Below the pieces are notes generated by a model. It was given only the letters and a program-made list of their open reading frames with translations. It was not told the DNA's origin and did no database searches. DNA of 53,686 nucleotides from Deltaproteobacteria bacterium (lineage in GTDB: Bacteria; Myxococcota_A; Polyangia; Polyangiales; Sandaracinaceae): assembly GCA_043750095.1 (NCBI GenBank), contig JAYVCF010000246.1, forward strand, positions 1-53,686, in the 5' to 3' direction. Positions 5,185-47,269 of the stretch are shown in pieces (position 1 is the stretch's first letter; each line of letters starts with the position of its first letter). Made by a program: the position numbers and the translations under genes.

Positions 5185-5251
5185 GAGGAGTGGGGCCCCG
5201 AGCCGGCTCCGCCGGGCGGGGCGGGGCCGCGTATCGGCCCCGAAAAAACTA
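5185..5251 (-). repeat. stop-codon-adjacent T-tract plus double-hairpin element, family B, copy 1 (3' of ychF)
   Basis: The minus strand reads TAGTTTTTTCGGGGCCGATACGCGGCCCCGCCCCGCCCGGCGGAGCCGGCTCGGGGCCCCAC. It is near-identical to 34304..34369. Confidence 0.8.
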
Positions 5252-9136: not shown

Positions 9137-11950
9137 TTACGGGTGCACGTCGAGCCGGCGCTCGAAGTGCGCGATCACGTCGGGCTCGTCATAGGCCATC
9201 GCAGGCTGCTCGTTCTGGATCCAGTGCGCGGCTTCGTCGGCGTGGTGCCGGCTCGCGGGGTCGAGGGCCTGACCGCCGGGGAGCGCGTTGAACGCGTGCG
9301 GGCCCGTCGGGGTCATCTCGACGACGAGGCGCTGCGACGCGCCCGAGCCGTGCGAGAAATCGGTCGTGTTCCACAGGCCGAAGTTGCCCACGTCGACCGC
9401 GCCGTAATCGCCATGGCGCGGATAGCCATTGGGATTCGTCGCGTCGTCCGGCGTCGGGATCGAGATCGCGTCGGGCAGGCCCAGGCCGCCCGCGTCGAAG
9501 CGCACCGTGTGGAGGCGGCCCCAGCGCCACTGGTTCTCGTCGGCGCCGAGCCGCGTATCGAGGTAGTCGAGCGCCGCGAGGACGCCGCGGATCGCGATCT
9601 GGTCGCGTGTCTCGACGACCGTGGTCGTCGTCATGTCGTCCCAGAGCACGTTGCCCGTGATGAGGTGCGTCGGAGCGGCGAAGCTCCACTCGAGGAAGCG
9701 CAGCGTCTGCGCGCTGTCCACGCCGCGGCCCATCGCCGTGGCCTCGTCGCCGAGCGCGAGCGGCGCGATGCGCGAGAGCGACACGTTGAAGATCGTGGTG
9801 GCGATGCTGTCCGCGATCACGCTCGCGTCGGTCGCGTTCACTCCGTGCGGCGTCGCCAGGGACCACGCCATGAGGCGCATGCGCACGTCGTCGAGCCGCG
9901 AGAGCTCTGCCGCGGTGAGCGTCGGGATCGTCGTGTGCGCGTCGGCGAGGATCGCGACCAGCGGATCACGGATCATCTCGCCCGACGAGCTGCGCGTGGC
10001 GGCTTGCAGGGTGATCATGTCGGCGGTGGTGATCGCGCCGCGCGTCGCGAGCATCCCGAGCTGCTCGTGGATGCGGTGCACGCGCCAGCCGAGGTCCATG
10101 TCGCCGCCGAGGTAGTGCGTGTCGTTGCAGGCGTTGCCGTCGAGCGTGGTGCCCGTGTTGTCGGCGTTGGCCGTGCCGATCCAGCCGCGCGTCGGGTTCT
10201 GGTCGAAGGGGATGTAGCGGCTGTCGAGGTCGCCGGTCCACTCGTACTCGCCCGTGCCCGGGAGCGCGAAGAGCGGGGAGTAGCCCGTCGGTACGCCCGA
10301 CGCGTCGTACGCCCACGTGAGCGCGCGCGGATCACGAACCGGAATGCGCGCCTGTGTCGACCAGCGGATGTCGTGCTGATCCACGACGACGAAGTTCTGT
10401 GAGCCGACGCGGAAGTGCTGCTGCGCCGCCTGTGCGTCCGCGACGTTCGTCGCCGTGGCGAGCCCGACGAAGTAAGCCAGCTCGTTCGAGAAGTCCGAGC
10501 CGGTGTAGCGGACCGACATCGCCGTGAACTGGCCCGGCGATCCGGTGACGGGCATGCGCGTGCCCGGGATGATCACCCCGTGGTGCGGGACGATCTCGAT
10601 CGTGAAGGGCACGGGCGCGCCTGCGGAGCTCGGCAGCATCTCCACGGTCGCGACGATGGGCACTTGCGTGGTCCCGGTGCCCGGGTCGAAGGCCACCGTG
10701 TCGGGCGCGCCGCCCGTGCCCGCGGTGATGTGCTCGACGTACACGTCGGTGACGTCGTAGCCCGTCGTGGTCGCGCCCCAGGCGATGTGGCGGTTGAAGC
10801 CGAGCACGACGCCGGGAAGGCCCGCGAAGCAGACGCCCTCGACGTCCAAGTTCTCTTCGCCGTGCATCTGCGCGGTGTTGAGGTGCGCGTACCACCAGAC
10901 CGGCGGGCTGATGAGCGAGAGGTGGGGATCGTTGGCGAGGATCGGATGGCCGCTGGCCGTGAGGGAGCCGCTCACGATCCAGTTGTTCGAGCCGCGGTGC
11001 TCGTCGCCGTAGCCGAGATCGAAGAAGCGCTGGTCCATGCGGTCGAAGAACGCGCGCGCGGCGGCGAGCTGAGAGGGCGGCGGAAGCTGCATCGCGATGC
11101 CCGTGGGCTGAGTGCCGAAACCGGGCGGCAACAGCGCGCGCGCGCCGGTGTCCGTGGGCTCGTTGGGGAATCCGTCACGCACCGTGTCGGGTCGCGCCGG
11201 GTAGTCCGCGAACAGGTCGGCGAAGATGCCGCGTCGCGGATCGCTCGCGCCACCGAACGCCATGCGGACTGCCGCCAGCGTCTGCGTGCGGCTGACGTCG
11301 GAGCCCGCGTCGTAGCTGAGCGAGGCGGCTTGGAAGCGCGCCATCGCCATGATGTCTTCCGGACGCCAGTGCCCGAACGCGGGCGAGAGCAGCACGATGT
11401 TGAACGTGTTCGCCGCGTCGGGCGCGGGGTTCTCGGTCCCTGCCATCGCGTTGTCGATGTAGACGTTGATGCCGTCGACGAACGCCTGCGTGAGCAGGCG
11501 CGTGCGCACGTCCACCGGGTCGGTGCTGGTCTGGATGCGCGCCCACATCATCTCGCCCCAGCGGCGAAAGCCTTCCTGAAGCGCGTCCTGGTCCTGACGG
11601 AGCACGCTCGGCTGCGCGGCCGCGAGCACCTCGCCGAGCCGACCGATCACGTTGCGGCGGATCATCTCCATCTGCGCGAAGCGATCGCGCGACATCAGGT
11701 AGCCCTGCACCATGAACACGTCGTGCAGCGTGGTGCCGTAGATGTGCGGCATGCCGCGATCGTCGTAGACGACCTCGACGGCCGCATCGAGCCCGTGCAG
11801 CTGGAGCGAATCGCCGAGAGGCAGCTGCGTCACGCTCGTGACCGGGCCCGCGTCCATTCCGCCGTCCGCTGCGGGTGGGCTGGTTCCGCCGCATGCGGTC
11901 GCGAACGAGCCGAGAACCACGAGCGAGGAGAGAAGCTGCCGTCGATGCAT
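9137..11950 (-). CDS. penicillin acylase (S45, Ntn-hydrolase) family lipoprotein
   Basis: 937 aa. Lipoprotein signal MHRRQLLSSLVVLGSFATAC. The nucleophile region GSNNWIVSGSLTASGHPILANDPHL is typical of penicillin/AHL acylases. Confidence 0.9.
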   Translation of the reverse strand: MHRRQLLSSLVVLGSFATACGGTSPPAADGGMDAGPVTSVTQLPLGDSLQLHGLDAAVEVVYDDRGMPHIYGTTLHDVFMVQGYLMSRDRFAQMEMIRRNVIGRLGEVLAAAQPSVLRQDQDALQEGFRRWGEMMWARIQTSTDPVDVRTRLLTQAFVDGINVYIDNAMAGTENPAPDAANTFNIVLLSPAFGHWRPEDIMAMARFQAASLSYDAGSDVSRTQTLAAVRMAFGGASDPRRGIFADLFADYPARPDTVRDGFPNEPTDTGARALLPPGFGTQPTGIAMQLPPPSQLAAARAFFDRMDQRFFDLGYGDEHRGSNNWIVSGSLTASGHPILANDPHLSLISPPVWWYAHLNTAQMHGEENLDVEGVCFAGLPGVVLGFNRHIAWGATTTGYDVTDVYVEHITAGTGGAPDTVAFDPGTGTTQVPIVATVEMLPSSAGAPVPFTIEIVPHHGVIIPGTRMPVTGSPGQFTAMSVRYTGSDFSNELAYFVGLATATNVADAQAAQQHFRVGSQNFVVVDQHDIRWSTQARIPVRDPRALTWAYDASGVPTGYSPLFALPGTGEYEWTGDLDSRYIPFDQNPTRGWIGTANADNTGTTLDGNACNDTHYLGGDMDLGWRVHRIHEQLGMLATRGAITTADMITLQAATRSSSGEMIRDPLVAILADAHTTIPTLTAAELSRLDDVRMRLMAWSLATPHGVNATDASVIADSIATTIFNVSLSRIAPLALGDEATAMGRGVDSAQTLRFLEWSFAAPTHLITGNVLWDDMTTTTVVETRDQIAIRGVLAALDYLDTRLGADENQWRWGRLHTVRFDAGGLGLPDAISIPTPDDATNPNGYPRHGDYGAVDVGNFGLWNTTDFSHGSGASQRLVVEMTPTGPHAFNALPGGQALDPASRHHADEAAHWIQNEQPAMAYDEPDVIAHFERRLDVHP

Positions 11951-17877: not shown

Positions 17878-17950
17878 CGCGGCCGGAGTCGTCCGCGGAG
17901 CGGACGCGACACAATTGTGTCGGCCCGGCGAGCCGGGCACTCCGGTCGAG
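17878..17950 (-). repeat. 73-nt four-way-junction (cloverleaf) repeat, family A, copy 1
   Basis: The reverse complement reads CTCGACCGGAGT GCCCGGCTCGCCGGGC CGACACAATTGTGTCG CGTCCGCTCCGCGGACG ACTCCGGCCGCG. It lies between the stop of 17952..18818 and the GTG start at 17874. Confidence 0.85.
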
Positions 17951-17951
17951 C

Positions 17952-18818
17952 TCAAACTTCACCCGGTGTCGCGGTGAGAAGCTGGAGCTGGCGTTCCATA
18001 CGCACGAGCCACTGGACGTAGGGGTGCTCGCCGCCGCGCTCGCGCACCATCGCCAGGAGCGCGCGATTCTCGAGCAGCGCATCGTCGTAGCGCTCGAGCT
18101 CGAGCGCGCGCGTCATGCGCAGGCGATGCGTGTCGTAGTCTTCTTGGATGCGGTGCTGCATGTAGTCGCGTTCGCGCTGCATCTCCGTGGCGGGCGCCGT
18201 CGCATGCTGCGCCGTGTAGCAAACCGCCGCGGTGTCGTAGAGCACCACGGAGTCGAGGCCGTCGGCCGGATCGAAGGGATAGCGCTCGCTCTTGGCCAGC
18301 GCCGCTTCGGCCGATTGCTCCGCGCGCGCCATCGCCTGCATCGGATCGGTGACCGGACACGCGCCGAGCGGCGCGAAGAGCGGATAGGGCTCCGGCGCGT
18401 CGGTCTCGAGGCCCGCCGTCTCCGTCCCTTGCAGCGACCAGATCACCACCACCGCGCCCAGCACGCCCGCGATGATCACGAGCGGCGAAGCCTGCCCCTT
18501 GGCCTTGCCCTGTTCCTGCGGCGGTTTGTCGGTGACGCGGAAGCGCAGGCCTCCGATCTCGACCTCGCTGCCCCACTGGACCATGCCGTGCTGAAACGGC
18601 TGGCCGCGCACCTTCGCTTGGATCTTCGCGCCCTGCGCGATCGCGACCCAGCATCCCTCGCCACGCGGGGCGATCAGCAGGTGCTCCGGCTCGAGGTCGC
18701 GCGCGTCGGGAAGCGGGATGCCGGCCGTCGGTGATCGACCGACCGTGATCTGCTCACCCTCGATGCGCGTGCGCTCGAGCGTTCCGTCTTCGCGAATGAC
18801 TTCGACGTAGGCTTCCAT
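17952..18818 (-). CDS. FHA-domain membrane protein
   Basis: 288 aa. N-terminal FHA-like core (ITVGRSPTAGIPLPDARDLEPEHLLIAPRGEGCWV), TM helix PLVIIAGVLGAVVVIW, and a helical C-terminal domain. Confidence 0.75.
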   Translation of the reverse strand: MEAYVEVIREDGTLERTRIEGEQITVGRSPTAGIPLPDARDLEPEHLLIAPRGEGCWVAIAQGAKIQAKVRGQPFQHGMVQWGSEVEIGGLRFRVTDKPPQEQGKAKGQASPLVIIAGVLGAVVVIWSLQGTETAGLETDAPEPYPLFAPLGACPVTDPMQAMARAEQSAEAALAKSERYPFDPADGLDSVVLYDTAAVCYTAQHATAPATEMQRERDYMQHRIQEDYDTHRLRMTRALELERYDDALLENRALLAMVRERGGEHPYVQWLVRMERQLQLLTATPGEV

Positions 18819-24584: not shown

Positions 24585-24657
24585 GCGAGCCCGCAGCCTA
24601 TCCGATCACGGCCGAGGGCTGGAAGGGGGATCTCCGCGTAGCGGAAACAACGCGTGC

Positions 24658-25689
24658 CTAGTTGCAGCTACCGTTGTCGCAGGCCTGCTCCCAGCCCGTG
24701 GAGTCGCTTCCGCCGTGATAGCGATAGTTCGCAGCCTGCAAGGGCATCGCGGCCTCGGCCGTGATGGGCACGAAGCGCGGGATCGGCCCGCCCGCCAGCT
24801 GCGAGATGCCTGCGACGAGCACGAGCACGTTCAGCGCGTTGCCGAGCTCGTTGATGCGGGGCGTCCAGCGCGTGTGCCGCGCGCTGCGTACGTTCATCGC
24901 CGCCATCGCGTCCTGGAACTGCTGGATCGTCAGGTCGCCGCGGGCGAAGGCCGACGCGAGCCCTGCGATCGCGCCTGCATCGACGCCCGTGCGCATGTAG
25001 ACGAGGTCTTCGCACATCAGGCGGTTCGCGAGCGGGATCTGGCAGTTGTAGAGGTACGTGACGCGTGCGATCAGCTGACCGGCATCGCCCACCGCATCGG
25101 GCGCCGCGAAGTCCGTGTTGTAGCTGGAGGTGCTGCCGCCCGCCTGAGGGAACGTCACGCGCATCGCCATGCTGTTGTAGACGATGCCCCACGCGACGCG
25201 CGCCTCGGGCGAGTCGAAGCCGGTCATGCCGAGACCACCGCGCACGCTCTCGTCCTGAGGCAGGCGAGCGATCGAGAGCGGCGAGGGCGAGAGCGGAAGG
25301 AGCGGCATCCCGGCGGCGAACTCGACCGCCTGCAGGCGTGCGCCGCCGGTCCACTGCGGGCCCGAGCCGCCACCGCTGCTGCCGAAGAAGCGGCCGATGA
25401 GACCACCCGCCGTCTGAACGAAGCTCGACATGCCCGTCGCGGTGGTGTTGAGCTGGCGACGCGCCTCGTCGTCGTAGTACTGCGGGTCGTCGTCCATCAC
25501 GACCATCGCCGCGCGCGCGGCGACGTTGGCCGAGTGCTGCACGACGAGGCTCGCGCCGTAGAGCAGCCCCATCTGGAGCATGCCGAGGAACATGAAGAAG
25601 AGCGGGATGAACGCGAGGAGGAACTCGACGTAGACCGCTCCTCCCGTGCTCCGAAGCAGGCCCGTGTCTCTGAGGATGCTCTTCTTCAT
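24658..25689 (-). CDS. TadE/TadG-like pseudopilin/assembly protein
   Basis: 343 aa. The N-terminus GGAVYVEFLLAFIPLFFMFLGMLQMG matches the TadE-type hydrophobic segment with the conserved E. Confidence 0.7.
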   Translation of the reverse strand: MKKSILRDTGLLRSTGGAVYVEFLLAFIPLFFMFLGMLQMGLLYGASLVVQHSANVAARAAMVVMDDDPQYYDDEARRQLNTTATGMSSFVQTAGGLIGRFFGSSGGGSGPQWTGGARLQAVEFAAGMPLLPLSPSPLSIARLPQDESVRGGLGMTGFDSPEARVAWGIVYNSMAMRVTFPQAGGSTSSYNTDFAAPDAVGDAGQLIARVTYLYNCQIPLANRLMCEDLVYMRTGVDAGAIAGLASAFARGDLTIQQFQDAMAAMNVRSARHTRWTPRINELGNALNVLVLVAGISQLAGGPIPRFVPITAEAAMPLQAANYRYHGGSDSTGWEQACDNGSCN

Positions 25690-27017: not shown

Positions 27018-28400
27018 TCATCGCGGTGCTGGGGTCTCCGGAGCGGCACCGCGTCGGGCGAACAGATAGAGGAGCAGGCCGACGACGATCGACAGGCTCC
27101 CCCAGATGGCGACCGTCGGGTCGTACGCGATGGCCGCCACGATCGCGCCGAGAGAGAGCAGCACGAACGCGATGGGCGTGAGCGGATAGCCCGGGGTCCG
27201 ATACGCATGCGGCGGCGCTCCTCGATGACGAACGACGAGCACGCCCGCGACGGTCAGCGCCGACGAGAGAGACAGCGTCACGCCGACCGAGCCGAGCAAG
27301 ACGTCGAAGCTCGAGGTCAGAATCATGACGGCCGCGAGCAGGACCTGCACGACGAGCGCGACACGCAGCGGCGCGATCTTGCCGAGCACCGCGTGGTCTC
27401 GACCCATCGCCGCGTACACGCGCGTGCCCGTGAGCACGAAGGCGCCGATGGTCGAGAGCAGGCCGAAGGCGATCATGCTCGAGAGGATGCGGCCGGCGGT
27501 CGCACCGAAGAGATGCGTCGCCGCGACGTGCGCGATCTCCAGCTGAGCGAGCTCGTCGCGCGGTGCGGCCGCGAGGAAGAGCGCGTTCAGCGCGAGGTAC
27601 ACGAGCGTGACCGCGAGCGTGCCGAGTCCGAGCGCGCGAGGAAGCGTGCGCGGCGCATCCTCGATCTCGCCGCCGACGTACACGGCCGCGTTCCAGCCGG
27701 TGTAAGCGAACGAGACGAGCACGATGCCGAACGCGAACGAGGGCTCGGCGATCTCGGAGACACGCATCGGCGGATCGAGCAGGCGCGCGGGCTCGAGCGA
27801 GGGCGAGAACACACCCGCGATCACGAAGAGCACGGCGAGCGCGAGCTTGCCGAGCGTGAGGAGATCCTGCGCACGCAGCGTGAAGACGTGCTCGCGGGCG
27901 TGCGCGAGGGACACGATGAGGACGATCCCGAGCGCGACGGGCAGCTCGATCGCGGCGAGCGCAGCGCCCTCGATCCCGAGCGCCCTGCCCGCGTAGCGCG
28001 CGAACGCGATCCCGCAGGCCGCGATGGGCGCCGCGAACCCGAGCACGATCGAGGCGATGCCGGCGACGAACCCCACCGATGGATGAAACACGCGAGACAG
28101 GAGCGCGTACTCGCCGCCGCTCTCGGGATAGATGCTCGCGAGCTCTGCGTACGAGAGCGCACCCGCGAGCGAGAGCAGCCCCGCGACGAGCCAGACGGAG
28201 AGGACCCCGAGCGGCGTGCGTCCTTCGGCGAGCATGAGGCCGCTCGTCGTGTAGACGCCCGTCCCGATCATGCTCGCGACGACGAGCCCGCTCGCCGAGC
28301 CGAGCCCGAGCTTCTGCGCTCGACCGGAGTGCCCGGCTCGCCGGGCCGACGCAATTGTGTCGCGTCCGCTCTGCGGACGACTCCGGTCGAGATCGCTCAC
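27018..28400 (-). CDS. APC-superfamily amino acid/polyamine permease
   Basis: About 12 TM helices. N-terminal signature KLGLGSASGLVVASMIGTGVY. The only start upstream of that signature is GTG 28400, which overlaps the P450 TGA and forces translation through the 73-nt repeat. ATG 28271 is the alternative start. Confidence 0.8.
   Translation of the reverse strand: MSDLDRSRPQSGRDTIASARRAGHSGRAQKLGLGSASGLVVASMIGTGVYTTSGLMLAEGRTPLGVLSVWLVAGLLSLAGALSYAELASIYPESGGEYALLSRVFHPSVGFVAGIASIVLGFAAPIAACGIAFARYAGRALGIEGAALAAIELPVALGIVLIVSLAHAREHVFTLRAQDLLTLGKLALAVLFVIAGVFSPSLEPARLLDPPMRVSEIAEPSFAFGIVLVSFAYTGWNAAVYVGGEIEDAPRTLPRALGLGTLAVTLVYLALNALFLAAAPRDELAQLEIAHVAATHLFGATAGRILSSMIAFGLLSTIGAFVLTGTRVYAAMGRDHAVLGKIAPLRVALVVQVLLAAVMILTSSFDVLLGSVGVTLSLSSALTVAGVLVVRHRGAPPHAYRTPGYPLTPIAFVLLSLGAIVAAIAYDPTVAIWGSLSIVVGLLLYLFARRGAAPETPAPR
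28319..28391 (+). repeat. 73-nt four-way-junction repeat, family A, copy 2
   Basis: CTCGACCGGAGT GCCCGGCTCGCCGGGC CGACGCAATTGTGTCG CGTCCGCTCTGCGGACG ACTCCGGTCGAG. It lies between the P450 stop and the conserved N-terminus of the permease. Confidence 0.85.
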
Positions 28401-31294: not shown

Positions 31295-31513
31295 CGAGGG
31301 CCTGAGTTTCGCACGATCCTAGCTTCGACCACGTAGTTCGAGGGGCCTTGGACCCTCAATTGGGGCCTCGTGGCCACGGCTCGCGCACCACGAGCGATGC
31401 ACGATGATTCACTACGAGCGCCCACACATTTGGGGTTTCGAGCCAAGATGTCGTTGATCGATTGCTCAGACGCAGGGCACCATGCGGAGAGCAATGACGC
31501 ACTCGAGGTTCGA

Positions 31514-34303
<2,790 letters not shown>

Positions 34304-34306
<3 letters not shown>

Positions 34307-34369
34307 TTTCTACGGGGCCGATACGCGGCCCCGCCCCGCCCGGCAGAGCCGGCTCGGGGGCCCCACCCC
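34304..34369 (+). repeat. stop-codon-adjacent T-tract plus double-hairpin element, family B, copy 2 (3' of the kinase gene)
   Basis: TAGTTTCTACGGGGCCGATACGCGGCCCCGCCCCGCCCGGCAGAGCCGGCTCGGGGGCCCCAC. The hairpins are GGGGCCG-ATACG-CGGCCCC and CCCCGCCCGGC-AGA-GCCGGCTCGGGG. Confidence 0.8.
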
Positions 34370-34457: not shown

Positions 34458-35936
34458 TCACCAAGGGATCGCGACGTAGTCCTTCAAGAACAATCCGAAC
34501 TGGTGCTTGCCGGTTCGGAATCCATCGATGATCGGATCGACGATGCGCGCGGCGCCATCGACGACGTCGAGCGGCGGCGAGAAGCCGTGCTCTTCGACCT
34601 TGCGGGTCGAGATCTCGATGGGGTCTTCGTCGGTGATCCAGCCGGTGTCGACGCTGTTCATGTGGATGCCGTCGCGCACGTAGTCGGCCGCGGACGTGCG
34701 CGTCATCATGTTGAGCGCGGCCTTGGCCATGTTCGTGTGCGGATGCTTGTCGGTCTTGAACGCGCGATAGAACTGACCCTCCATCGCCGAGACGTTCACG
34801 ATGTGCTTGTCGTTCGTGGGCACGCGGTTCATCAGCGCGCGCAGGCGTCCGTTGAGCACGTAGGGGGCGATCGCGTTCACCAGCTGCACCTCGTGCAGCT
34901 CGACCGTCGAGACCTCGTGCAAGAGAAGTCGCCAGCTGTTGCGACCGCGCAGATCGACCTGCTGCATGTCCGCGTCGAGCTTGCCTGCCGGAAAGAGCGT
35001 GAGGTCTTCGCGGAGCTCCTCGGGTAGGAGCGCCACCTGCGAGAGCGCCACCGGATCGGCGATCCCCGGCGTCGACGCGCGCCGCGCGAGCGCGCTCGAG
35101 GCGTGCAGCTGATCGTTGAGCGCGAGGAGCGACCGCAGCTCGGTCGGCGGCGGCGCGAGCTCGGCGTCCACGAGGTGGCGATAGAACCCCGGCGGTCGAC
35201 GCACGGTCTGACATGCGTTGTTCACGATGAAGTCGAGGCGATCGAGCGTGCGGTCGAGCTCCGCACAGAACGCCTCGACGCTGGGCGTGTGGCGCAGATC
35301 GAGCCCGACGATCGTCAGCCGATCCCTCCACTCGGCGAAGTCCGGCTCGCGCGCATAGCGAGCCGCCGAGTCGCGAGGAAACCGCGTGGTCGCGATCACC
35401 CGCGCGCCCGCGCGCAGCAGCTTGATGACCGCGTGGTACCCGATCTTCACGCGCGAGCCCGTCACCACGGCGACGCGCCCGCGGAGATCAGCCGTCGCGT
35501 TGCGCTTGTCCCAGTTCAGCGCGCCGCACTTGCCGCACATCTGATCGTAGAAGTGGTGCACCTCGCGGAACGCGCGCTTGCACACGTAGCACTTGCGCTC
35601 TTCGAACAGCACGCCGATGGGCGGCGGCTCGTTCGCGCGCGACGCGTCACCATCGCTGAGCTGCGGCGGCGTGACGAAGAACGGCACCTTGCGCGCCTGG
35701 CGGATGCCCGTCCTCTCGAGCAGCACCTCGGCGGCCACCCGCTCGTTCTTGTTCTCCTTCTTCCGGATGGCCTTGCGCAGCTTGCGCAGCTCGCCGCGCT
35801 CGGGCCGCGAGAGCCTGCCCGCCGCGATCAAGAGCTGACGCCGCACCTCCCGCGGCATGTCCGCGAGCTTGGTGCGGTCGTCCACCATCGCTTCGAGCAG
35901 CGCGATGGTGCGGAGGATCTCGTCGTCGTCGGACAT
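34458..35936 (-). CDS. SDR-family oxidoreductase with N-terminal helical plus CxxC..CxxC zinc-ribbon extension
   Basis: Start trimmed to MSDDDEILRT. Zinc ribbon CYVCKRAFREVHHFYDQMCGKCG. SDR Rossmann motif VAVVTGSRVKIGY, NNA motif, and a catalytic-region Y/K context (HTNMAKAAL). Confidence 0.8.
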   Translation of the reverse strand: MSDDDEILRTIALLEAMVDDRTKLADMPREVRRQLLIAAGRLSRPERGELRKLRKAIRKKENKNERVAAEVLLERTGIRQARKVPFFVTPPQLSDGDASRANEPPPIGVLFEERKCYVCKRAFREVHHFYDQMCGKCGALNWDKRNATADLRGRVAVVTGSRVKIGYHAVIKLLRAGARVIATTRFPRDSAARYAREPDFAEWRDRLTIVGLDLRHTPSVEAFCAELDRTLDRLDFIVNNACQTVRRPPGFYRHLVDAELAPPPTELRSLLALNDQLHASSALARRASTPGIADPVALSQVALLPEELREDLTLFPAGKLDADMQQVDLRGRNSWRLLLHEVSTVELHEVQLVNAIAPYVLNGRLRALMNRVPTNDKHIVNVSAMEGQFYRAFKTDKHPHTNMAKAALNMMTRTSAADYVRDGIHMNSVDTGWITDEDPIEISTRKVEEHGFSPPLDVVDGAARIVDPIIDGFRTGKHQFGLFLKDYVAIPW

Positions 35937-35999
35937 CGGCAGGCCGAGCGTTTTGGTGCGGCCGCGTCGGCCGAGCAACCAGGGTGATAGCCTCGAGGT

Positions 36000-36797
36000 G
36001 TGCGGCACCCTGGGCTCGTGCGCGTGTGTCTCATGGTCTGCGTCGGCTGCGCGCCCCCGGCTCCTTGCGACCAGCCGCCTCGGTTCCGGCTCTGCCCCGA
36101 AGGAACAGGCTGCTCGCAACACGCGGACTGTGCGAGTAGCTCTTGCGTGCATGGCGCGTGCGCGTCTGCATGCACGAGCGCGCGCGAGTGCGGCGCCGGG
36201 AGCGCATGCCTGAGAACGTCGGGCGTCGCTCCCGACGGGTGCGGGACGCTCTGCCCGGCAGGCTTTGCGTACGAGGGAGACCACCAAGGCCTGACCTGCG
36301 TCGATGGCGTGATCGTCTCGTGCGCGAGTGCCGCCGACCCCGACGCGCGCTGTGATGCCTGCGGATGCCGCGACGCTGCGCACCACTGCTTTCGGGCCGG
36401 CGGGTTCGGATGCGACCTCGCGGGCGGATCATGCACGTGCGCGGCCCCGCGCGAGGTCGGCGCGGGCTGCGACGAGAGTGACGACTGCGCCTCGTCGAAC
36501 TGCAGCGCCGTGGGGTTCGGCGACGGCAGGTGTCTCGTCGCAGCGGGGAGCGCATGCGGATCGACCGCGGCGCCTTGCGTCTACTGCGACCTTCCGAGCG
36601 CGGGCGGTTCACCCGTGTGTCGCGAGTCGTGCCGCACGGACGCCGATTGCACGAGCGCCATCTGCGTCGCCCACGCGTCGGCTCGCTTGGCCTGCCACGT
36701 GGAGTGCACTCACGACGCTTTGCGCTGCACGGCGCTCGAGCACTGTCTCGCACTGGTCGACGACGCGGCCCGCCGCAGCGCGTGCGTCCCGAACTGA
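36000..36797 (+). CDS. secreted Cys-rich protein (possible lipoprotein)
   Basis: 265 aa with more than 35 Cys in repeated DCxSxxC/CxxxxxC spacing. Short signal-like N-terminus LVRVCLMVCVGC. GC3 bias supports coding. Confidence 0.55.
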   Translation: MRHPGLVRVCLMVCVGCAPPAPCDQPPRFRLCPEGTGCSQHADCASSSCVHGACASACTSARECGAGSACLRTSGVAPDGCGTLCPAGFAYEGDHQGLTCVDGVIVSCASAADPDARCDACGCRDAAHHCFRAGGFGCDLAGGSCTCAAPREVGAGCDESDDCASSNCSAVGFGDGRCLVAAGSACGSTAAPCVYCDLPSAGGSPVCRESCRTDADCTSAICVAHASARLACHVECTHDALRCTALEHCLALVDDAARRSACVPN

Positions 36798-38493: not shown

Positions 38494-38591
38494 GGCGCGC
38501 GAGCGTAGTACGAGCGTGCTGCCGATTCACACGCCGTTGCGCCCGGTTGGGCCACGCACGAAAATCACCTCGGATTCGCGGTTCGTTCGGA

Positions 38592-38607
38592 TGGCACGAC
38601 GTCTGCT
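38592..38607 (+). promoter_or_regulatory. sigma-54 (-24/-12) type promoter match upstream of lipoprotein gene 38649..39437
   Basis: TGGCACGACGTCTGCT with correct GG/GC spacing. The predicted TSS is about 30 nt upstream of the ATG. Confidence 0.45.
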
Positions 38608-38648
38608 GTACGGGAGCGAGCTTGGCTCAATCCACTTCGGAGGCTCGT

Positions 38649-39437
38649 ATGCGCTCACGTCTCGCGGTTCTCGCCGTCCTCGGCTGTCTCACTGGTCTCC
38701 CCGGATGTCTCGGTGGGGGGAGCTCGCTCACCGGTCCGACCACCCTCGGCGACCAAGGCCACACGGTCTGGCAGATCAGCGACGGACTCTGCGGGCAGGG
38801 GGTGTTCGGCGGGGAGTGCGACCTCAATCAGCACATCGCCGTGGGCGCCTCGCCCATGGTGCAGATCCGGCAGCACAACAGCGCCGCCACCCTGCTCGAC
38901 CACGCGACGTTGATGGGCGGAGCCACGAGCGTGACGATCAGCGGCGTGAGCACGACGACCGACGACCACGGCACACTGATCCAGGCGCACGTCGGCAGTG
39001 ACGTCGCGGGCGTGGCGGACGTCATCGTGCTCGACGCGAGCGGGCACGAGATCGATCGCGCGCACATCACGTTCGTGGCGGCGGCGACCCTGCTCTGCGG
39101 CGAGCTGCGCACGGCCGTGACGCGCGACCTGAACTTCCCCGGCCTGACGAGCGGCCCGATCACGGTGACCATGGCCGCGATGACGACGAGCACCGCGACG
39201 AACCTCGCGTGCCGCGCGAACGATGCCTCGGGCAACGCGCTGCTCACGGTCAACGCGATCCGCTGGAGCATCGCGACGGGCTCGGTCGGAACGATCAGCG
39301 TCACCAGCGACGACCTCTTCGCGAGCAGCCCCGCGGTCGGCGCGACGGCGAGGCTCGTCACGGCGGGAACGGGCAGCGGTACGATCCACGCCCTGCTCGG
39401 CACCGCGAGCACGGACATCGCCGTCAGCTTCCACTGA
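38649..39437 (+). CDS. hypothetical lipoprotein with Ig-like (BIG2-like) C-terminal region
   Basis: Start trimmed to MRSRLAVLAVLGCLTGLPGC, with GGAGG 8 nt upstream. Beta-rich body (LTVNAIRWSIATGSVGTISVTSD). Confidence 0.65.
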   Translation: MRSRLAVLAVLGCLTGLPGCLGGGSSLTGPTTLGDQGHTVWQISDGLCGQGVFGGECDLNQHIAVGASPMVQIRQHNSAATLLDHATLMGGATSVTISGVSTTTDDHGTLIQAHVGSDVAGVADVIVLDASGHEIDRAHITFVAAATLLCGELRTAVTRDLNFPGLTSGPITVTMAAMTTSTATNLACRANDASGNALLTVNAIRWSIATGSVGTISVTSDDLFASSPAVGATARLVTAGTGSGTIHALLGTASTDIAVSFH

Positions 39438-39438
39438 T

Positions 39439-39511
39439 CTCGACCGGAGTGCCCGGCTCGCCGGGCCGACACAATTGTGTCGCGTCCGCTTCGCGGACGA
39501 CTCCGGCCGAG
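39439..39511 (+). repeat. 73-nt four-way-junction repeat, family A, copy 3
   Basis: CTCGACCGGAGT GCCCGGCTCGCCGGGC CGACACAATTGTGTCG CGTCCGCTTCGCGGACG ACTCCGGCCGAG. It starts 2 nt after the TGA of 38649..39437 and sits between convergent genes. Confidence 0.85.
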
Positions 39512-39526
39512 ACCGATCGCGCGCGG

Positions 39527-40216
39527 CTACTTCTTCGGCTTCGGCGAGGACTCACGCACGAGCGCCTCGAGCGTCGGGAGCAACATCTTCCGACGCAGAA
39601 GTACGACGAGCCTCTCGCTCAGCTCGGTCGCGGCGAGCGTGAGCTCAGGTAGGTTCGCGCCCGCGCGCGGCAACACTCCCGCACGAAAGAGCTGGAGCTC
39701 CGCGCGAACGAGCGCGCCGAGCGCGTTACCGTACTCGCCGAGCACCTCGAGGGGCAGCATCTCGGGGTCGAGTCCTGCCTTGCGCGCTGCGCCGAGCAGA
39801 CGGAGCAGCTCGAGATCGTCGCCTTCGAAGACCTCGCTCTTGCCGTCCTTTTTAGGACGCACCAGGCCCGTGCTCACGAGCCAGTCGAGCTGCGCTCGCG
39901 GAAGGCCCGAGCGCTGCAGATCGGCCCGCGTGCGGCGCTCGCCCTTCCGATCGTGAGCCAGAACGCGCGCGATCGTCGCGGCCACCGTCTCGTCGGGATC
40001 TTCGCGCTCGGACTCGTCCAGCACCTCGCGAATGACCTTGAGGGGCAAGAAGCGCGTGCGCTGGAGCTCTTTGATGCGCAGCACGCGATCGACGATGCTG
40101 ACGTCGTAGTACGCCATGTTCCGACCGGTGCGCGTCGGCTCGGGCAAGAGGCCTGCGAGGACGTAGTGCTTGATGGTCGCCGCGGGCACCCCGCTCATGC
40201 GAGCCAGCACCGACAT
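39527..40216 (-). CDS. MerR-family transcriptional regulator
   Basis: N-terminal HTH MSVLARMSGVPAATIKHYVLAGLLPEP..GRNMAYYD and a long helical C-terminal domain. The track ORF 39527..41173 is an over-extension through the upstream gene. Confidence 0.85.
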   Translation of the reverse strand: MSVLARMSGVPAATIKHYVLAGLLPEPTRTGRNMAYYDVSIVDRVLRIKELQRTRFLPLKVIREVLDESEREDPDETVAATIARVLAHDRKGERRTRADLQRSGLPRAQLDWLVSTGLVRPKKDGKSEVFEGDDLELLRLLGAARKAGLDPEMLPLEVLGEYGNALGALVRAELQLFRAGVLPRAGANLPELTLAATELSERLVVLLRRKMLLPTLEALVRESSPKPKK

Positions 40217-40287
40217 CTTCACGCGCGGATGCGGCGCGGGCTGGGCCGCGGGCTTCTTCGGCGATGCGCTGCGCGCGACTCTCGCCG

Positions 40288-41373
40288 TCAAGGACCGACC
40301 CGCGTGATGCCCGTCGGGACCGACGCGCCGGTGAGCCAGGCTGCCATGTCCGTCTCGCCACGGAGATGATAGCGCGCGAACGCGACCGACATCGTGCGGA
40401 TGTCGTCGCGGAGCGTCGCGACGTTCGTCGGCTCCATCGCGCAGAAACTTCCGAACGTCCCGCCGCCGTCGTCCGTGAACGTCATGTGAACCGCGTCGGC
40501 GAAGGTCCACTGCACCGCCCACGACGAGGCGTGGATGGCCGCGTAGATCGTCGCGTAGTTCTGCGCCGTGGGCGCGCAGGGCATGAAGCCGCCCGACCCA
40601 TCGTTGGTCTCGCCCATCACGCCGACCGGGATGGTGAGCGCGCCGGCCTCGGTCGCGCTCGCCGCGTCCGGACACGTCGCGCTGAAGCCCATCCCCGGGC
40701 CGCAGCCGTTCACCGGATCGAGCAAGAGCGCCGCAGTGATGCGCGTGTCGGCAGCCGCGGCGAGGACGGCATCCTTGCCCCCACGGCTGTGTCCCATCAC
40801 CAGGATGTGCGTCGCGTCCACGCTGGCGGCGAAGGGCGCCGCACCGAGCGCCCAGTCGATCGTGTGAAGGATCGCATCGCGCTCGTCGATGTTCGTCGGC
40901 CCGCCGATGAAGCTGCTCGACGTGTTCACGCCGATCACGACGAAGCCGTGGGAGGCGATGCGCTGGAGCAGCATCGCGTAGTTCGTCGTCGAGAGCTGGT
41001 AGCCGTGCTTGAAGACCACGAGCGGCGCGCGCTCGCCCGCGGCCAGCGTCGGCACGAACGCGACGGCGGTGGCGCCCGTCAGCATCGTGGACGACATCGT
41101 GACGGTGTGGGGACCGACGGCGTCGGGGCGCGAACCGGTCGTGGTTCCGGAATCGGTGCCCGGCGCCACCCACGCGTCCGTAGCGGGCGCGCTCGCGTCG
41201 TGGGTCGGTGTGCCCGCGTCGGTCGTCGGCGACGCAGCGTCGTCACCCCCGTGCATGCCGCCGTCGGTGCGCGTGGGCCCGGCGTCGCCGGTCTCGGGCA
41301 CGCCGGCTCCACCACACCCGAAGGCGAACGAGAGCGCGAGGGCGATCGAGAGCACGATGCGAAACGGCGTCAT
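40288..41373 (-). CDS. alpha/beta-hydrolase lipoprotein (chlorophyllase/PAF-acetylhydrolase-like)
   Basis: Lipobox SFAFGC. Nucleophile elbow VMGHSRGG. Preceding strand PLVVFKHGY. Confidence 0.75.
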   Translation of the reverse strand: MTPFRIVLSIALALSFAFGCGGAGVPETGDAGPTRTDGGMHGGDDAASPTTDAGTPTHDASAPATDAWVAPGTDSGTTTGSRPDAVGPHTVTMSSTMLTGATAVAFVPTLAAGERAPLVVFKHGYQLSTTNYAMLLQRIASHGFVVIGVNTSSSFIGGPTNIDERDAILHTIDWALGAAPFAASVDATHILVMGHSRGGKDAVLAAAADTRITAALLLDPVNGCGPGMGFSATCPDAASATEAGALTIPVGVMGETNDGSGGFMPCAPTAQNYATIYAAIHASSWAVQWTFADAVHMTFTDDGGGTFGSFCAMEPTNVATLRDDIRTMSVAFARYHLRGETDMAAWLTGASVPTGITRVGP

Positions 41374-44869: not shown

Positions 44870-47269
44870 CTAATTGCGTAGTGGGCGGTTGTTCATGAGC
44901 ATGTGCTGCATGCGCTCTTGGCTCTTCGGCTCGCCGCAGAGGCTGATGAACGCCTCGCACTCGAGGTCGAGCACTTCTTGCTCGGTGACCTCGTGCGTGT
45001 GGCCCGACGGGCCACCGTTGAGGACGACGGCGAGCTTGCGCGCGATGAGCGCGTCGTGCGCGCTCGCGTAACCACCGGCGACGAGCGTGTCGATCATCAT
45101 CCCGAGCGTCGCGATGCCGTTCTCGCCAGGAAGGACGTAGGCGCGCGGGATCGGCGGATGGTAGCCGCTCGCGGCGAGACCGATCGCACGCGCCTTCGCT
45201 TCATGCAGCTGACGCGCACGATCGAAGCTCACGCCATCGCTCTTCCTGAAGTAGCCGAAGTGCTGCGCTTCGACGGCGGACGTCGCGACGTTGGCGAGCG
45301 CGATGTTCTTGAACACCTGCGTCACGATCGCGTACGTGTCGAGGGTCGCGCCCTGCACGTTCGCGTCGAGCGCGCGCCAGAGCATGTTCATCGTGCCCGC
45401 GCCGCCGGGGATCAGGCCCACACCGACCTCGACGAGGCCTGCGTACGTCTCGGCCGCGGCCTGCACCGCGTCGCTTCCGAAGCAGAGCTCGAGGCCACCG
45501 CCGAGCGTCATCCCGTAGGGCGCAGCGACCACCGGAACGCGCGCGTACTTCAGGCGCTGCGTCGCCGACTGATAGCCCTTCACCAGCGTGCGCAGCTGGT
45601 CCCACTGCTGCTGGCCCGCCGCCATCACCACGCCGAAGAGGTTCGCACCCACGCTGAAGTGCTCGCCCTCGTTCGCGATCACGATCGCGCGGAAGTCGCT
45701 CTCCGCTCTCTCGGCCGCGTCGTGCAGCATGGCGATCACGTCGGGATCGATGCTGTTCGCCTTCGTCTTGAAGGTGATGCCGAGCACGCCCTCGCCGAGG
45801 TCCCACGCGTCCGCGCCCGCGTTCGTGAGCACCGGTGCCTCTCCACGACGCACCTTCGCCAGCGGTAGCTCGCGCGGATCCGCGGGCCGCAGCACGTGCT
45901 TGCCCTCGGCGAAGCTCCAGACGGCGAGGCCCTTCTTCGTCTGCTTGTAGAAGCTGCGCGCGCCCTTGGCCGACATCTCCTTGATGCGCTCGGGGATGGC
46001 GATGCCGTCCTTCTCCATGCGCGCGAGAGTCTTGCCAAAGCCGAGCGCATCCCAGGTCTCGAAGGGGCCGAGCTCCCAGTTGTATCCCCACTTCATCGCG
46101 TCATCGATCGCCACCACGTCGTCGGTGATCTCGCCGATGCGGCGCGCCGCGTAGGCCATCGCGCGAGAGAGAACCTTCCACGAGAACGTGCCGACCTTGC
46201 CGCGCGTCTTGACGAGCGCATTCACGCGCTCCACCGGCGACTCGATCTTCGAGATCGCCTTCGTCGCCGTGGCGATGCCCGCATCGCCGCCCTTCGGCCG
46301 ATACGCGAGCGTGGCCGGATCGAGCGTGAGCGTGTCGGCCTTGTCGCGCTTGTAGAAGCCGCCCCGGGTCTTGTCGCCGAGGATGTTCTTCTCGACCATC
46401 GCGCGGATGAATGCGGGCACCTCGAAGACGGCGCGCTCTTCGTCGTCCGGCAGAGCCTTCCAGCAGTTGTCGGCGACGTGCACGAACGTGTCCAGGCCGA
46501 CGATGTCCGCCGTGCGGAACGAGGCGCTCTTCGGGTGCCCCATCGGCACACCCGTGATGTTGTCGACGTCCTCGGGCGTCAGGCCCATCTCGAGCATGAG
46601 ATGAATCGTCGTCATCATCGAGTGAATGCCGATGCGGTTGCCGATGAAGTTCGGCGTGTCCTTGCCGACGACGATGCCCTTGCCGAGGTCTTCCTTGCCG
46701 AGCTTCGCGATCGTCGCGACGGTGGCCGGATCCGTCTCCGGACCCGCGACGAGCTCGAGCAGCTTCATGTAACGCACGGGATTGAAGAAGTGCATCACGA
46801 GGAAGCGCTTCTTGAATCCGTCGCCGCGTCCCTCGACCATGTCGTGGATGCGCAGGCCCGAGGTGTTCGACGCCACGATCGTGTGCGGCTGAACGACCTT
46901 CTCGAGCTTCTCGAAGAGGCCGCGCTTGATGTCGAGCCGCTCGACGATCGCCTCGATGATCAGATCGCAGGCGCCCGCCTCCGGGAGGTCGTCGTCGAGG
47001 TTGCCGACGCTCACGAGCTTGGCGTTCGAGCCATGAAAGAACGCCGCGGGCTTCGCTTTCGCCAGCCCCGCGAGGGCCGCGGCCGCGACCCCGTTGCGCG
47101 GCGCCTTCGGATCCTTCGGCTCGCCAGAGTGCCCGGCGGAGCCGGGCCGATCCTTCGGTGCGATGTCGAGCAAGAGCACGGAGAAGCCCGCGTTCGCCAG
47201 GTGCGCCGCGATGCCGCTGCCCATCACGCCCGAACCGAGAACCGCCACGCGTCGGATCGCCTTACCCAT
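44870..47269 (-). CDS. 3-hydroxyacyl-CoA dehydrogenase/enoyl-CoA hydratase, FadN-type order (dehydrogenase N-terminal, crotonase C-terminal)
   Basis: Start trimmed to MGKAIRRVAVLGSGVMGSGIA (Rossmann fold). C-terminal crotonase block VIANEGEHFSVGANL. 799 aa. Confidence 0.9.
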   Translation of the reverse strand: MGKAIRRVAVLGSGVMGSGIAAHLANAGFSVLLLDIAPKDRPGSAGHSGEPKDPKAPRNGVAAAALAGLAKAKPAAFFHGSNAKLVSVGNLDDDLPEAGACDLIIEAIVERLDIKRGLFEKLEKVVQPHTIVASNTSGLRIHDMVEGRGDGFKKRFLVMHFFNPVRYMKLLELVAGPETDPATVATIAKLGKEDLGKGIVVGKDTPNFIGNRIGIHSMMTTIHLMLEMGLTPEDVDNITGVPMGHPKSASFRTADIVGLDTFVHVADNCWKALPDDEERAVFEVPAFIRAMVEKNILGDKTRGGFYKRDKADTLTLDPATLAYRPKGGDAGIATATKAISKIESPVERVNALVKTRGKVGTFSWKVLSRAMAYAARRIGEITDDVVAIDDAMKWGYNWELGPFETWDALGFGKTLARMEKDGIAIPERIKEMSAKGARSFYKQTKKGLAVWSFAEGKHVLRPADPRELPLAKVRRGEAPVLTNAGADAWDLGEGVLGITFKTKANSIDPDVIAMLHDAAERAESDFRAIVIANEGEHFSVGANLFGVVMAAGQQQWDQLRTLVKGYQSATQRLKYARVPVVAAPYGMTLGGGLELCFGSDAVQAAAETYAGLVEVGVGLIPGGAGTMNMLWRALDANVQGATLDTYAIVTQVFKNIALANVATSAVEAQHFGYFRKSDGVSFDRARQLHEAKARAIGLAASGYHPPIPRAYVLPGENGIATLGMMIDTLVAGGYASAHDALIARKLAVVLNGGPSGHTHEVTEQEVLDLECEAFISLCGEPKSQERMQHMLMNNRPLRN

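Follow-up and report, generated by a model that had tools for sequence, protein, structure and literature searches.

A cloverleaf-forming 71-nt repeat of uncultured Sandaracinaceae, very probably a MITE-like mobile element

A 73-nt repeat with the capacity to fold into a cloverleaf is present three times in the stretch of DNA investigated here (the window, 53,686 nucleotides in length, comprising one entire contig). We conclude that this repeat very probably belongs to an uncatalogued, MITE-like family of non-autonomous miniature transposable elements of the Sandaracinaceae, and that a tRNA-like RNA gene can be excluded. The decisive evidence for insertion is provided by a pair of filled and empty sites in a GST gene, at which the filled site carries the element between two GATC tetranucleotides and the empty site retains a single GATC. 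Further support comes from the terminal inverted repeats of the element, from its dispersal over 24 distinct copies, and from its absence at orthologous sites in related genomes.

The three copies in the window lie at 39439-39511 (+; copy 3), 28319-28391 (+; copy 2) and 17878-17950 (-; copy 1), where an earlier note on this DNA had placed them, and are ~95% identical to each other. A 39-nt core pattern allowing at most one mismatch matches exactly these three copies, with 0 matches expected from shuffles. The sequence differences listed in the earlier note were recovered as described, namely an arm-3 loop reading TTC, TCT or TCC, an A-to-G change in arm 2 and a T/C difference in the outer stem. 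The proposed length of the unit has to be revised, although its positions stand: the real unit is a 71-nt element with GATC or a decayed GATC on either side (Table 1). A covariance model search detected no further copies in the window. Two weak model matches were rejected as chance, one at 47114-47233 within the NAD-binding Rossmann motif of a FadB-like 3-hydroxyacyl-CoA dehydrogenase gene, and one at 24611-24699 (E = 0.72). The recurring peptides STGVPGSPGRHNCVASA and ARRAGHSGR, which had been attributed to the repeat from the outset, are genuine translations of it, and the six-frame translations of the element consist of pseudo-peptides of 24-29 aa only.

Table 1. Coordinates of the element copies in the window, with the domains and flanks of copy 3
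Feature	Position	Strand	Details
Copy 3, element proper	39440-39510	+	71 nt; covariance model match 96.9 bits
Copy 3, outer 5' arm / terminal inverted repeat	39440-39450	+	
Copy 3, arm 1	39451-39466	+	
Copy 3, arm 2	39467-39482	+	16-bp palindrome CGACACAATTGTGTCG
Copy 3, arm 3	39483-39499	+	
Copy 3, outer 3' arm	39500-39510	+	
Copy 3, 5' flanking GATC (target-site copy)	39436-39439	+	overlaps the upstream gene's TGA stop (39435-39437)
Copy 3, 3' flank	39511-39518	+	GACC followed by GATC
Copy 2, element proper	28320-28390	+	71 nt; flanks GCGC (28316-28319, decayed) and GATC (28391-28394)
Copy 1, element proper	17879-17949	-	71 nt; flanks GAGC (17953-17950) and GATC (17878-17875)

Analysis of GC content by codon position, open reading frames and Pfam matches placed all three window copies in intergenic DNA, 0-8 nt from a stop codon. 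Copy 3 is situated between the convergent genes 38547-39437 (+) and 39527-41173 (-; MerR-like). The TGA stop upstream of it also terminates orthologues that do not carry the element, and is ancestral. The GACC at its 3' flank is probably a decayed GATC duplicate, and the second GATC may be ancestral flank, since the related locus L025 has a GATCG at the matching distance from its MerR stop (L and P numbers denote fetched loci and proteins, respectively). Copy 2 shows the subfamily-specific G in arm 2 (forming G.T) and T in the outer stem. It lies between, and antisense to, two co-directional minus-strand genes encoding a cytochrome P450 (28397-29842) and an amino-acid permease (27018-28274). 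Copy 1 lies in sense orientation between the co-directional minus-strand genes 17952-18818 and 17140-~17871, the latter encoding a TPR protein, and its GAGC flank overlaps the stop codon TGA at 17954-17952. The claim that all copies sit exactly at gene boundaries thus holds for the window, but not for the family, in which copies are also found in frame within the genes for a GST, YacG and a 607-aa protein.

The GST copy defines the insertion event most precisely. The GST protein P0017 has 230 aa, whereas at least 20 orthologues with 68-77% identity have 205 aa, and the alignment contains a single exact insert of 25 residues (MRLHHHPLSPYSRKVVIAIQHRHDA-[ISAGVVRGADATQLCRPGEPGTPVE]-IELTQLTLGGG..., insert in brackets). 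At the DNA level, the filled site in L021 reads ...GACGC GATC [TCGGCCGG...CCGGTCGA] GATC GAGCTC..., and the orthologous empty site in L031, from another species (82% protein identity) rather than a sister strain, reads ...GACGC GATC GAGCTC... with a single GATC and is exactly 75 nt shorter. The net insertion of 75 nt corresponds to the 71-nt element plus 4 nt of GATC, and hence to 25 codons. A second case is found in the yacG gene of L026, where the motif CKRIDL / ATWLGEGYRI is split by 25 aa (DRSARLAGPTQLCRVRSADDSGRDL) encoded between GATCs. Computational removal of the 25 aa improves the Pfam matches of both proteins: the YacG match extends over 2-49 of 52 at 53 bits, versus 2-32 of 52 at 39.5 bits, and the GST_N_3 match over 1-70 of 75 at 56.6 bits, versus 32-70 of 75 at 48.3 bits. 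An AlphaFold2 model of P0017, obtained from a shallow alignment and with a mean pLDDT of 71, retains the GST fold and places the insert, with low confidence, in a loop that connects helix 1 to strand 2. A third in-frame copy was detected by HMMER, in a search of 1.84 billion representative proteins, at residues 237-264 of the 607-aa protein P0092. The E1 dehydrogenase fragment P0091 was considered as a further clean in-frame insertion, but excising 25 aa worsens its Pfam match and it was not counted. Presence/absence polymorphism extends to intergenic DNA: the spacer orthologous to that of copy 3, in the gene order fumarase-hyp-MerR, is devoid of the element in L014, L017 and L025 (54-78% protein identity).

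Of 22 copies, 16 retain an intact GATC in the 3' flank and 10 in the 5' flank, where the variants are GAGC, GCGC, GCTC, GGCC and GGTC. This asymmetry between the ends is statistically insecure (p about 0.06-0.1) and would not follow from a simple target-duplication model. A T preceding the 5' GATC often completes the TGA stop of the upstream gene, as it does in window copies 3 and 1 and in the copy L021b. Because GATC is a palindrome, duplications of 4 bp, 2 bp or none at all cannot be distinguished from one another, and insertion of a GATC-ended element immediately 3' of a GATC gives the same result as a duplication.

The repeat is not restricted to the window: 24 distinct copies, located with a covariance model built from 12 copies, are now available from ~220 kb comprising the window and related metagenome and MAG contigs. 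A search of 185,579 species-representative genomes with a 29-nt core pattern, which was too strict, retrieved a single copy (L001, from a Sandaracinaceae MAG). A looser pattern based on arm 2 recovered 10 true members in metagenome contigs, in addition to two chance palindrome matches with flanks unrelated to the element (L006 and L012), and had no matches in viral contigs; plasmid and phage collections also contained no matches to the element. At the protein level, a database search with the six element frames joined end to end identified eight called proteins that run through copies, whose contigs supplied additional sequence, and single-frame searches of the 1.84-billion representative set with HMMER gave three true matches. 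The hosts are uncultured relatives of Sandaracinus (Sandaracinaceae, Myxococcota, Polyangiales). The element is specific to a narrow clade of uncultured Sandaracinaceae and globally rare.

Several copies can occur on one contig, with three in the 7-kb L009 and second copies in L005, L021 and L023. Diagnostic variants are common to copies at unrelated loci, including an arm-2 G combined with an outer-stem T (window copy 2, denoted w28319, L021b and L023a) and A at outer-stem column 12 (L021b, L023b and L027), which indicates replicative spread within genomes as subfamilies. The Ga0302321 population has a subfamily of its own, with C opposite T at the junction and arm-1 loops of the AGA type. 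Two independent assemblies orthologous to window positions 39437-39490 both stop inside copy 3 (L029 ends at 10839, model position 55; L030 ends at 1190, position 30), suggesting that many near-identical copies exist in that genome. Two direct copies surround one gene in L005 and in L009; a mobile cassette was considered and rejected, as the enclosed genes are unrelated (encoding an AI-2E transporter and a YitT membrane protein). A 'solo' hairpin made up of the element termini only, GATCTCGGCCGGAG-CGC-CTCCGGCAGACATC, without the three inner arms, is located between convergent genes at L007:1672-1709. Either it arose by internal deletion or it is a minimal version of the element.

Each window copy adopts the cloverleaf on either strand, with RNA as well as DNA parameters: three hairpins with stems of 6, 6 and 7 bp abut one another and are enclosed by an outer stem. 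The RNA energies of the window copies, -45 to -54 kcal/mol, correspond to z-scores between -4.3 and -8.4, and none of 200 shuffled sequences is as stable. The fold was originally described as a perfect four-way junction with no unpaired junction bases. Its topology is confirmed on both strands, but its perfection is not, as an A.C mismatch interrupts the outer stem in copies 3 and 1, and additional mismatches occur at the termini of copy 1. Fully paired junctions are a property of the window subfamily, whereas in the other subfamily 7 of 21 copies have a T.C mismatch in place of the closing T-A pair. The terminal inverted repeats are 11 nt long (TCGRCCGGAGT...ACTCCGGYCGA) and are kept in 22 copies, with 82.6% of outer-stem cells paired. 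Aligned copies lengthen the outer stem to (T)GATCTCG...CGAGATC(A), so that the inverted repeats and the flanking GATCs together give a stem of up to 15 bp. The interior of the element occupies 49 of the 71 nt and has a G+C content of ~70%.

The proposal that the stems are under constraint, for which a covariance model had been suggested as a check, is supported by compensatory changes. Across the 24 copies, standard pairs occupy 91.4% of cells, compared with 29-44% for slid partners. Eight pairs are changed on both sides, a number reached by 13 of 500 shuffles; the 19 double-change cells and the covariation score of 0.086 (versus 0.053) are each reached by none of 500. Compensated arms include arm 1 of L013 (GCCCCGC/GCGGGGC) and arm 3 of L005b, L009b and L009c (GGTCCGC/GCGGACC). 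Arm 1 is also symmetrically shorter by 2 bp in L009b and L009c, and several pair swaps are present in the outer stems of L011, L013 and the TGCC/GGCA subfamily. Comparison of the aligned copies thus indicates that compensation in arm 1, arm 3 and the outer stem keeps the fold intact between subfamilies. Arm 2, by contrast, is nearly invariant in sequence, partly as an artefact of the metagenome search, whose pattern required arm 2.

Hairpins with the stem of arm 2 are also found elsewhere. One, CCGACAC-GAGA-TGTGTCGG, lies at L014:10784-10876 in a Sandaracinus sp. MAG, at the site orthologous to that of copy 3, with different loop and flanks; another, CGACAC-TTCG-GTGTCG, lies inside a weak model match at L003:1296-1381 and has the same stem with another loop and other flanks. 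These CGACAC...GTGTCG hairpins may be distant relatives of arm 2 or a coincidence.

The conservation of the fold between subfamilies is accompanied by uncorrected mismatches in single copies within a genome. In co-directional contexts, a manual count of mismatches on the transcribed strand gave five A.C and two G.U. This pattern agrees with selection on propagating 'master' sequences, that is on transposability, and agrees poorly with an RNA role of each individual copy. We infer that the structure is conserved because it is needed for mobilisation.

The combined properties of the element correspond to those of MITEs. At 71 nt it is small (below ~400 bp), carries no ORF for a transposase and is bounded by terminal inverted repeats. 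The direct repeat that flanks it in the GST and yacG genes is present once at the empty site, with a duplication of possibly 0, 2 or 4 bp. The element is also multi-copy, mostly intergenic, stably folding and at times fused to ORFs, with three empty orthologous sites known for copy 3. The MITE option, which had been raised before, has thus gained the support of both the inverted repeats and the GATC duplication seen on comparing filled with empty sites. Solo termini were not seen in the window and the fetched loci, and neither a transposase nor a full-length insertion sequence with these termini was present in the window or in ~220 kb of loci. The element also differs from typical MITEs in several respects. 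Its length is at the very short end of their size range, its G+C content of ~70% contrasts with their typical AT-richness, its palindromic GATC target and the lack of a parent insertion sequence in ~220 kb set it apart, and three compensatorily kept hairpins in a four-way junction replace a simple long hairpin. Classical DDE-type MITEs have an unconstrained and usually AT-rich interior (PMC10969869), unlike the constrained, GC-rich interior of the element.

The element inserts at GATC sites, and a filled site thereby gains 75 nt. In the mechanism that we propose, it would be mobilised in trans by a transposase encoded elsewhere. The fold would be retained for propagation, through an enzyme that recognises the folded or paired ends plus the invariant arm-2 palindrome, and not for a service of each copy to neighbouring genes; any effects on the stability or termination of neighbouring mRNAs would be a by-product. 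The majority of surviving copies are found in short spacers directly after stop codons, often at TGATC, and the net length of 25 codons allows members of the window subfamily to survive in frame inside genes as 25-residue inserts.

An alternative route of mobility would involve single-stranded DNA. The element could be of the REPIN/REP type or a derivative of IS200/IS605 elements (PATE-like), moved as folded ssDNA by a HUH/Y1 tyrosine transposase; a 75-nt element ending in GATC would then insert 3' of a GATC-like target without true duplication, and the cloverleaf would be the substrate. Such a route accords equally well with the filled and empty sites. Moreover, both strands of the element fold, and hairpins kept by compensation while single copies tolerate mismatches are what selection on folded-strand transposability would produce. 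The better preservation of the 3' GATC could also reflect the difference between an element end and a target, but the asymmetry is, as noted, statistically insecure. Elements of the IS200/IS605 type are without terminal inverted repeats or duplications and carry one hairpin at each end. The element, with its clear terminal inverted repeats of 11-15 bp and its closed cloverleaf, departs from this organisation, even though its conserved hairpins, its fixed adjacent tetranucleotide and its possible end asymmetry resemble IS608 and ISDra2. PATEs derived from IS200/IS605 insert strand-specifically 3' of a particular tetranucleotide; the GATC specificity and the end asymmetry agree with such an origin, and the strong inverted repeats disagree with it. 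No Y1 transposase is listed among the genes of the fetched loci, which cover only ~220 kb. Similarities to the REP/REPIN-RAYT system are apparent in the short, GC-rich, extragenic palindrome with conserved hairpins, in the occurrence of a distinct subfamily in each genome and in vertical persistence in a clade (PMC3116915, PMC2817692). However, a REP is an imperfect palindrome of 20-40 nt with a GTAG-type head that forms inverted doublets; the unit described here is a closed three-hairpin cloverleaf with terminal inverted repeats and GATC duplication, and has neither such a head nor a doublet. On balance, we regard mobility as folded ssDNA as unlikely.

It is also conceivable that the repeat is primarily a host-serving signal, such as a stabiliser of mRNA 3' ends, a terminator without a U-tract, an RNase site or, through CGACACAATTGTGTCG, a protein-binding site, with mobility accounting merely for its distribution. 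The fold is very stable on either strand, arm 2 is as nearly invariant as a protein site would be, and copies occur preferentially behind stop codons and between genes that converge (about 6-7 convergent contexts, 7 tandem and 1 apparently divergent, the latter being the intragenic GST copy). Secondary roles of this kind are known for the REP/BIME elements of Escherichia coli (PMC3184786). The copies nevertheless carry no T-run or terminator consensus: terminator-like sites number 0 at all three window copies, and no T-run flanks any aligned copy. Their orientation relative to transcription is random (four sense and three antisense in co-directional gene pairs), and the excess of A.C over G.U mismatches on the transcribed strand gives no sign of purifying selection at the RNA level in single copies. 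Copies inside coding sequences, orthologous spacers of relatives without the element, and the derivative at L007:1672-1709 that consists of the outer stem only also argue against a host signal. We consider this explanation distinctly unlikely, and do not regard the element as a terminator.

An even less probable reading holds that the cloverleaf itself, rather than the inverted repeats, is the transposition substrate, and that the element represents an undescribed class of structured mobile DNA. In this case a Holliday-like four-way junction would be mimicked by the folded strand or by a double cloverleaf in extruded form, and a junction- or hairpin-specific enzyme that cuts at GATC would recognise the structure through the invariant CGACACAATTGTGTCG arm. 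If true, this would account for the retention of a 49-nt interior through compensatory changes in different species, and for the existence of an outer-stem-only deletion derivative.

Finally, the idea of an independently transcribed 73-nt cloverleaf RNA, from a tRNA-like or small-RNA gene family, draws on length and four-way topology and is effectively refuted already: ARAGORN found no tRNA or tmRNA in the whole window, Rfam 15 gave 0 cmscan matches to the whole window at gathering thresholds (in line with the earlier impression of an uncatalogued repeat) and chance-level permissive matches near the element (E >= 3.9), the loops have just 3-4 nt, no sigma-70-like promoter consensus is present at the three window copies, both orientations occur, A.C mismatches are no rarer than G.U, and in-frame coding copies exist.

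All 10 copies of the window subfamily are free of stop codons in all six frames, compared with 3 of 11 other copies; the other subfamilies, with a net length of 76-77 nt, contain stop codons. An adaptation towards being open in all six frames was considered and rejected, since the same freedom from stops is seen in 12% of the window's 79-mers and in 16% of dinucleotide shuffles. Frame-neutrality is a fortunate property of one subfamily and not an adaptation of the family. Public gene calls can also start upstream of or within a copy, as in P0015 (L023:10001-10594), P0019 (L027:10001-10624) and P0020. The N-termini of these three proteins are element-encoded pseudo-peptides and hence annotation artefacts.

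In-frame residence within conserved genes has been described before in other bacteria. In the accounts relayed by later papers, Rickettsia palindromic elements (RPE) are palindromic repeats found in frame inside conserved protein genes (Ogata et al. 2000, via PMC3184786 and PMC10969869). The element resembles RPE and the betaproteobacterial BRE in being in frame inside conserved genes, here those for GST, YacG and the 607-aa protein, and, like RPE, its insert is a hydrophilic peptide predicted to form a surface loop. The likeness is one of behaviour only. There is no sequence relationship with RPE as presented in these accounts, and the hosts are Sandaracinaceae, which belong to another phylum than Rickettsia; the insert has 25 aa compared with about 35-50 aa, frame-neutrality is confined to the window subfamily, and the element has a clear target-site signature.

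The window contains other repeats and unusual genes. A second, unrelated repeat of 60 nt (GGGGCCCCGAGCCGGCTCCGCCGGGCGGGGCGGGGCCGCGTATCGGCCCCG...) is present in two inverted, 93% identical copies at 5192-5251 (+) and 34304-34363 (-), both intergenic. It holds the hairpin GGGGCCG-CGTAT-CGGCCCC, a motif also present, as a single occurrence, in locus L014 (2464-2482) of a Sandaracinus sp. MAG. The 60-nt repeat probably constitutes a further small family of repeats in this lineage. Six tandem units of ~210 nt, 63-76% identical, lie in long overlapping ORFs at the contig end (51928-53178) and probably represent a repeated protein domain. Tandem repeats of 36 nt (at least six units, 33770-34021) in the Ser/Thr kinase-PEGA gene 31370-34306 (+) encode a Pro/Thr/Ala-rich linker. 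The ORF 34458-36386 (-) has a short-chain dehydrogenase domain match in two pieces (residues 304-394 and 490-586) with ~95 residues between them, pointing to a large insertion in its Rossmann fold. No match of the cloverleaf model falls in this ORF.

Searches of the literature for myxobacterial REP or MITE sequences, cloverleaf repeats or GATC-duplicating MITEs found nothing relevant, and together with the Rfam searches this indicates that the element is apparently the first structured miniature transposon described for the Sandaracinaceae and Polyangiales. The finding changes no general principle. It does account for the false peptides that recur among gene calls from these high-GC metagenomes and for proteins with extended N-termini (P0015, P0019 and P0020), as well as for contig breaks in short-read assemblies (L029 and L030). 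The GST and YacG proteins provide clean cases of in-frame repeat survival outside Rickettsia, and are useful for understanding how proteins tolerate inserts of selfish DNA. For this lineage, the strict GATC target and the constrained three-hairpin core together offer a good handle for finding the transposase responsible.
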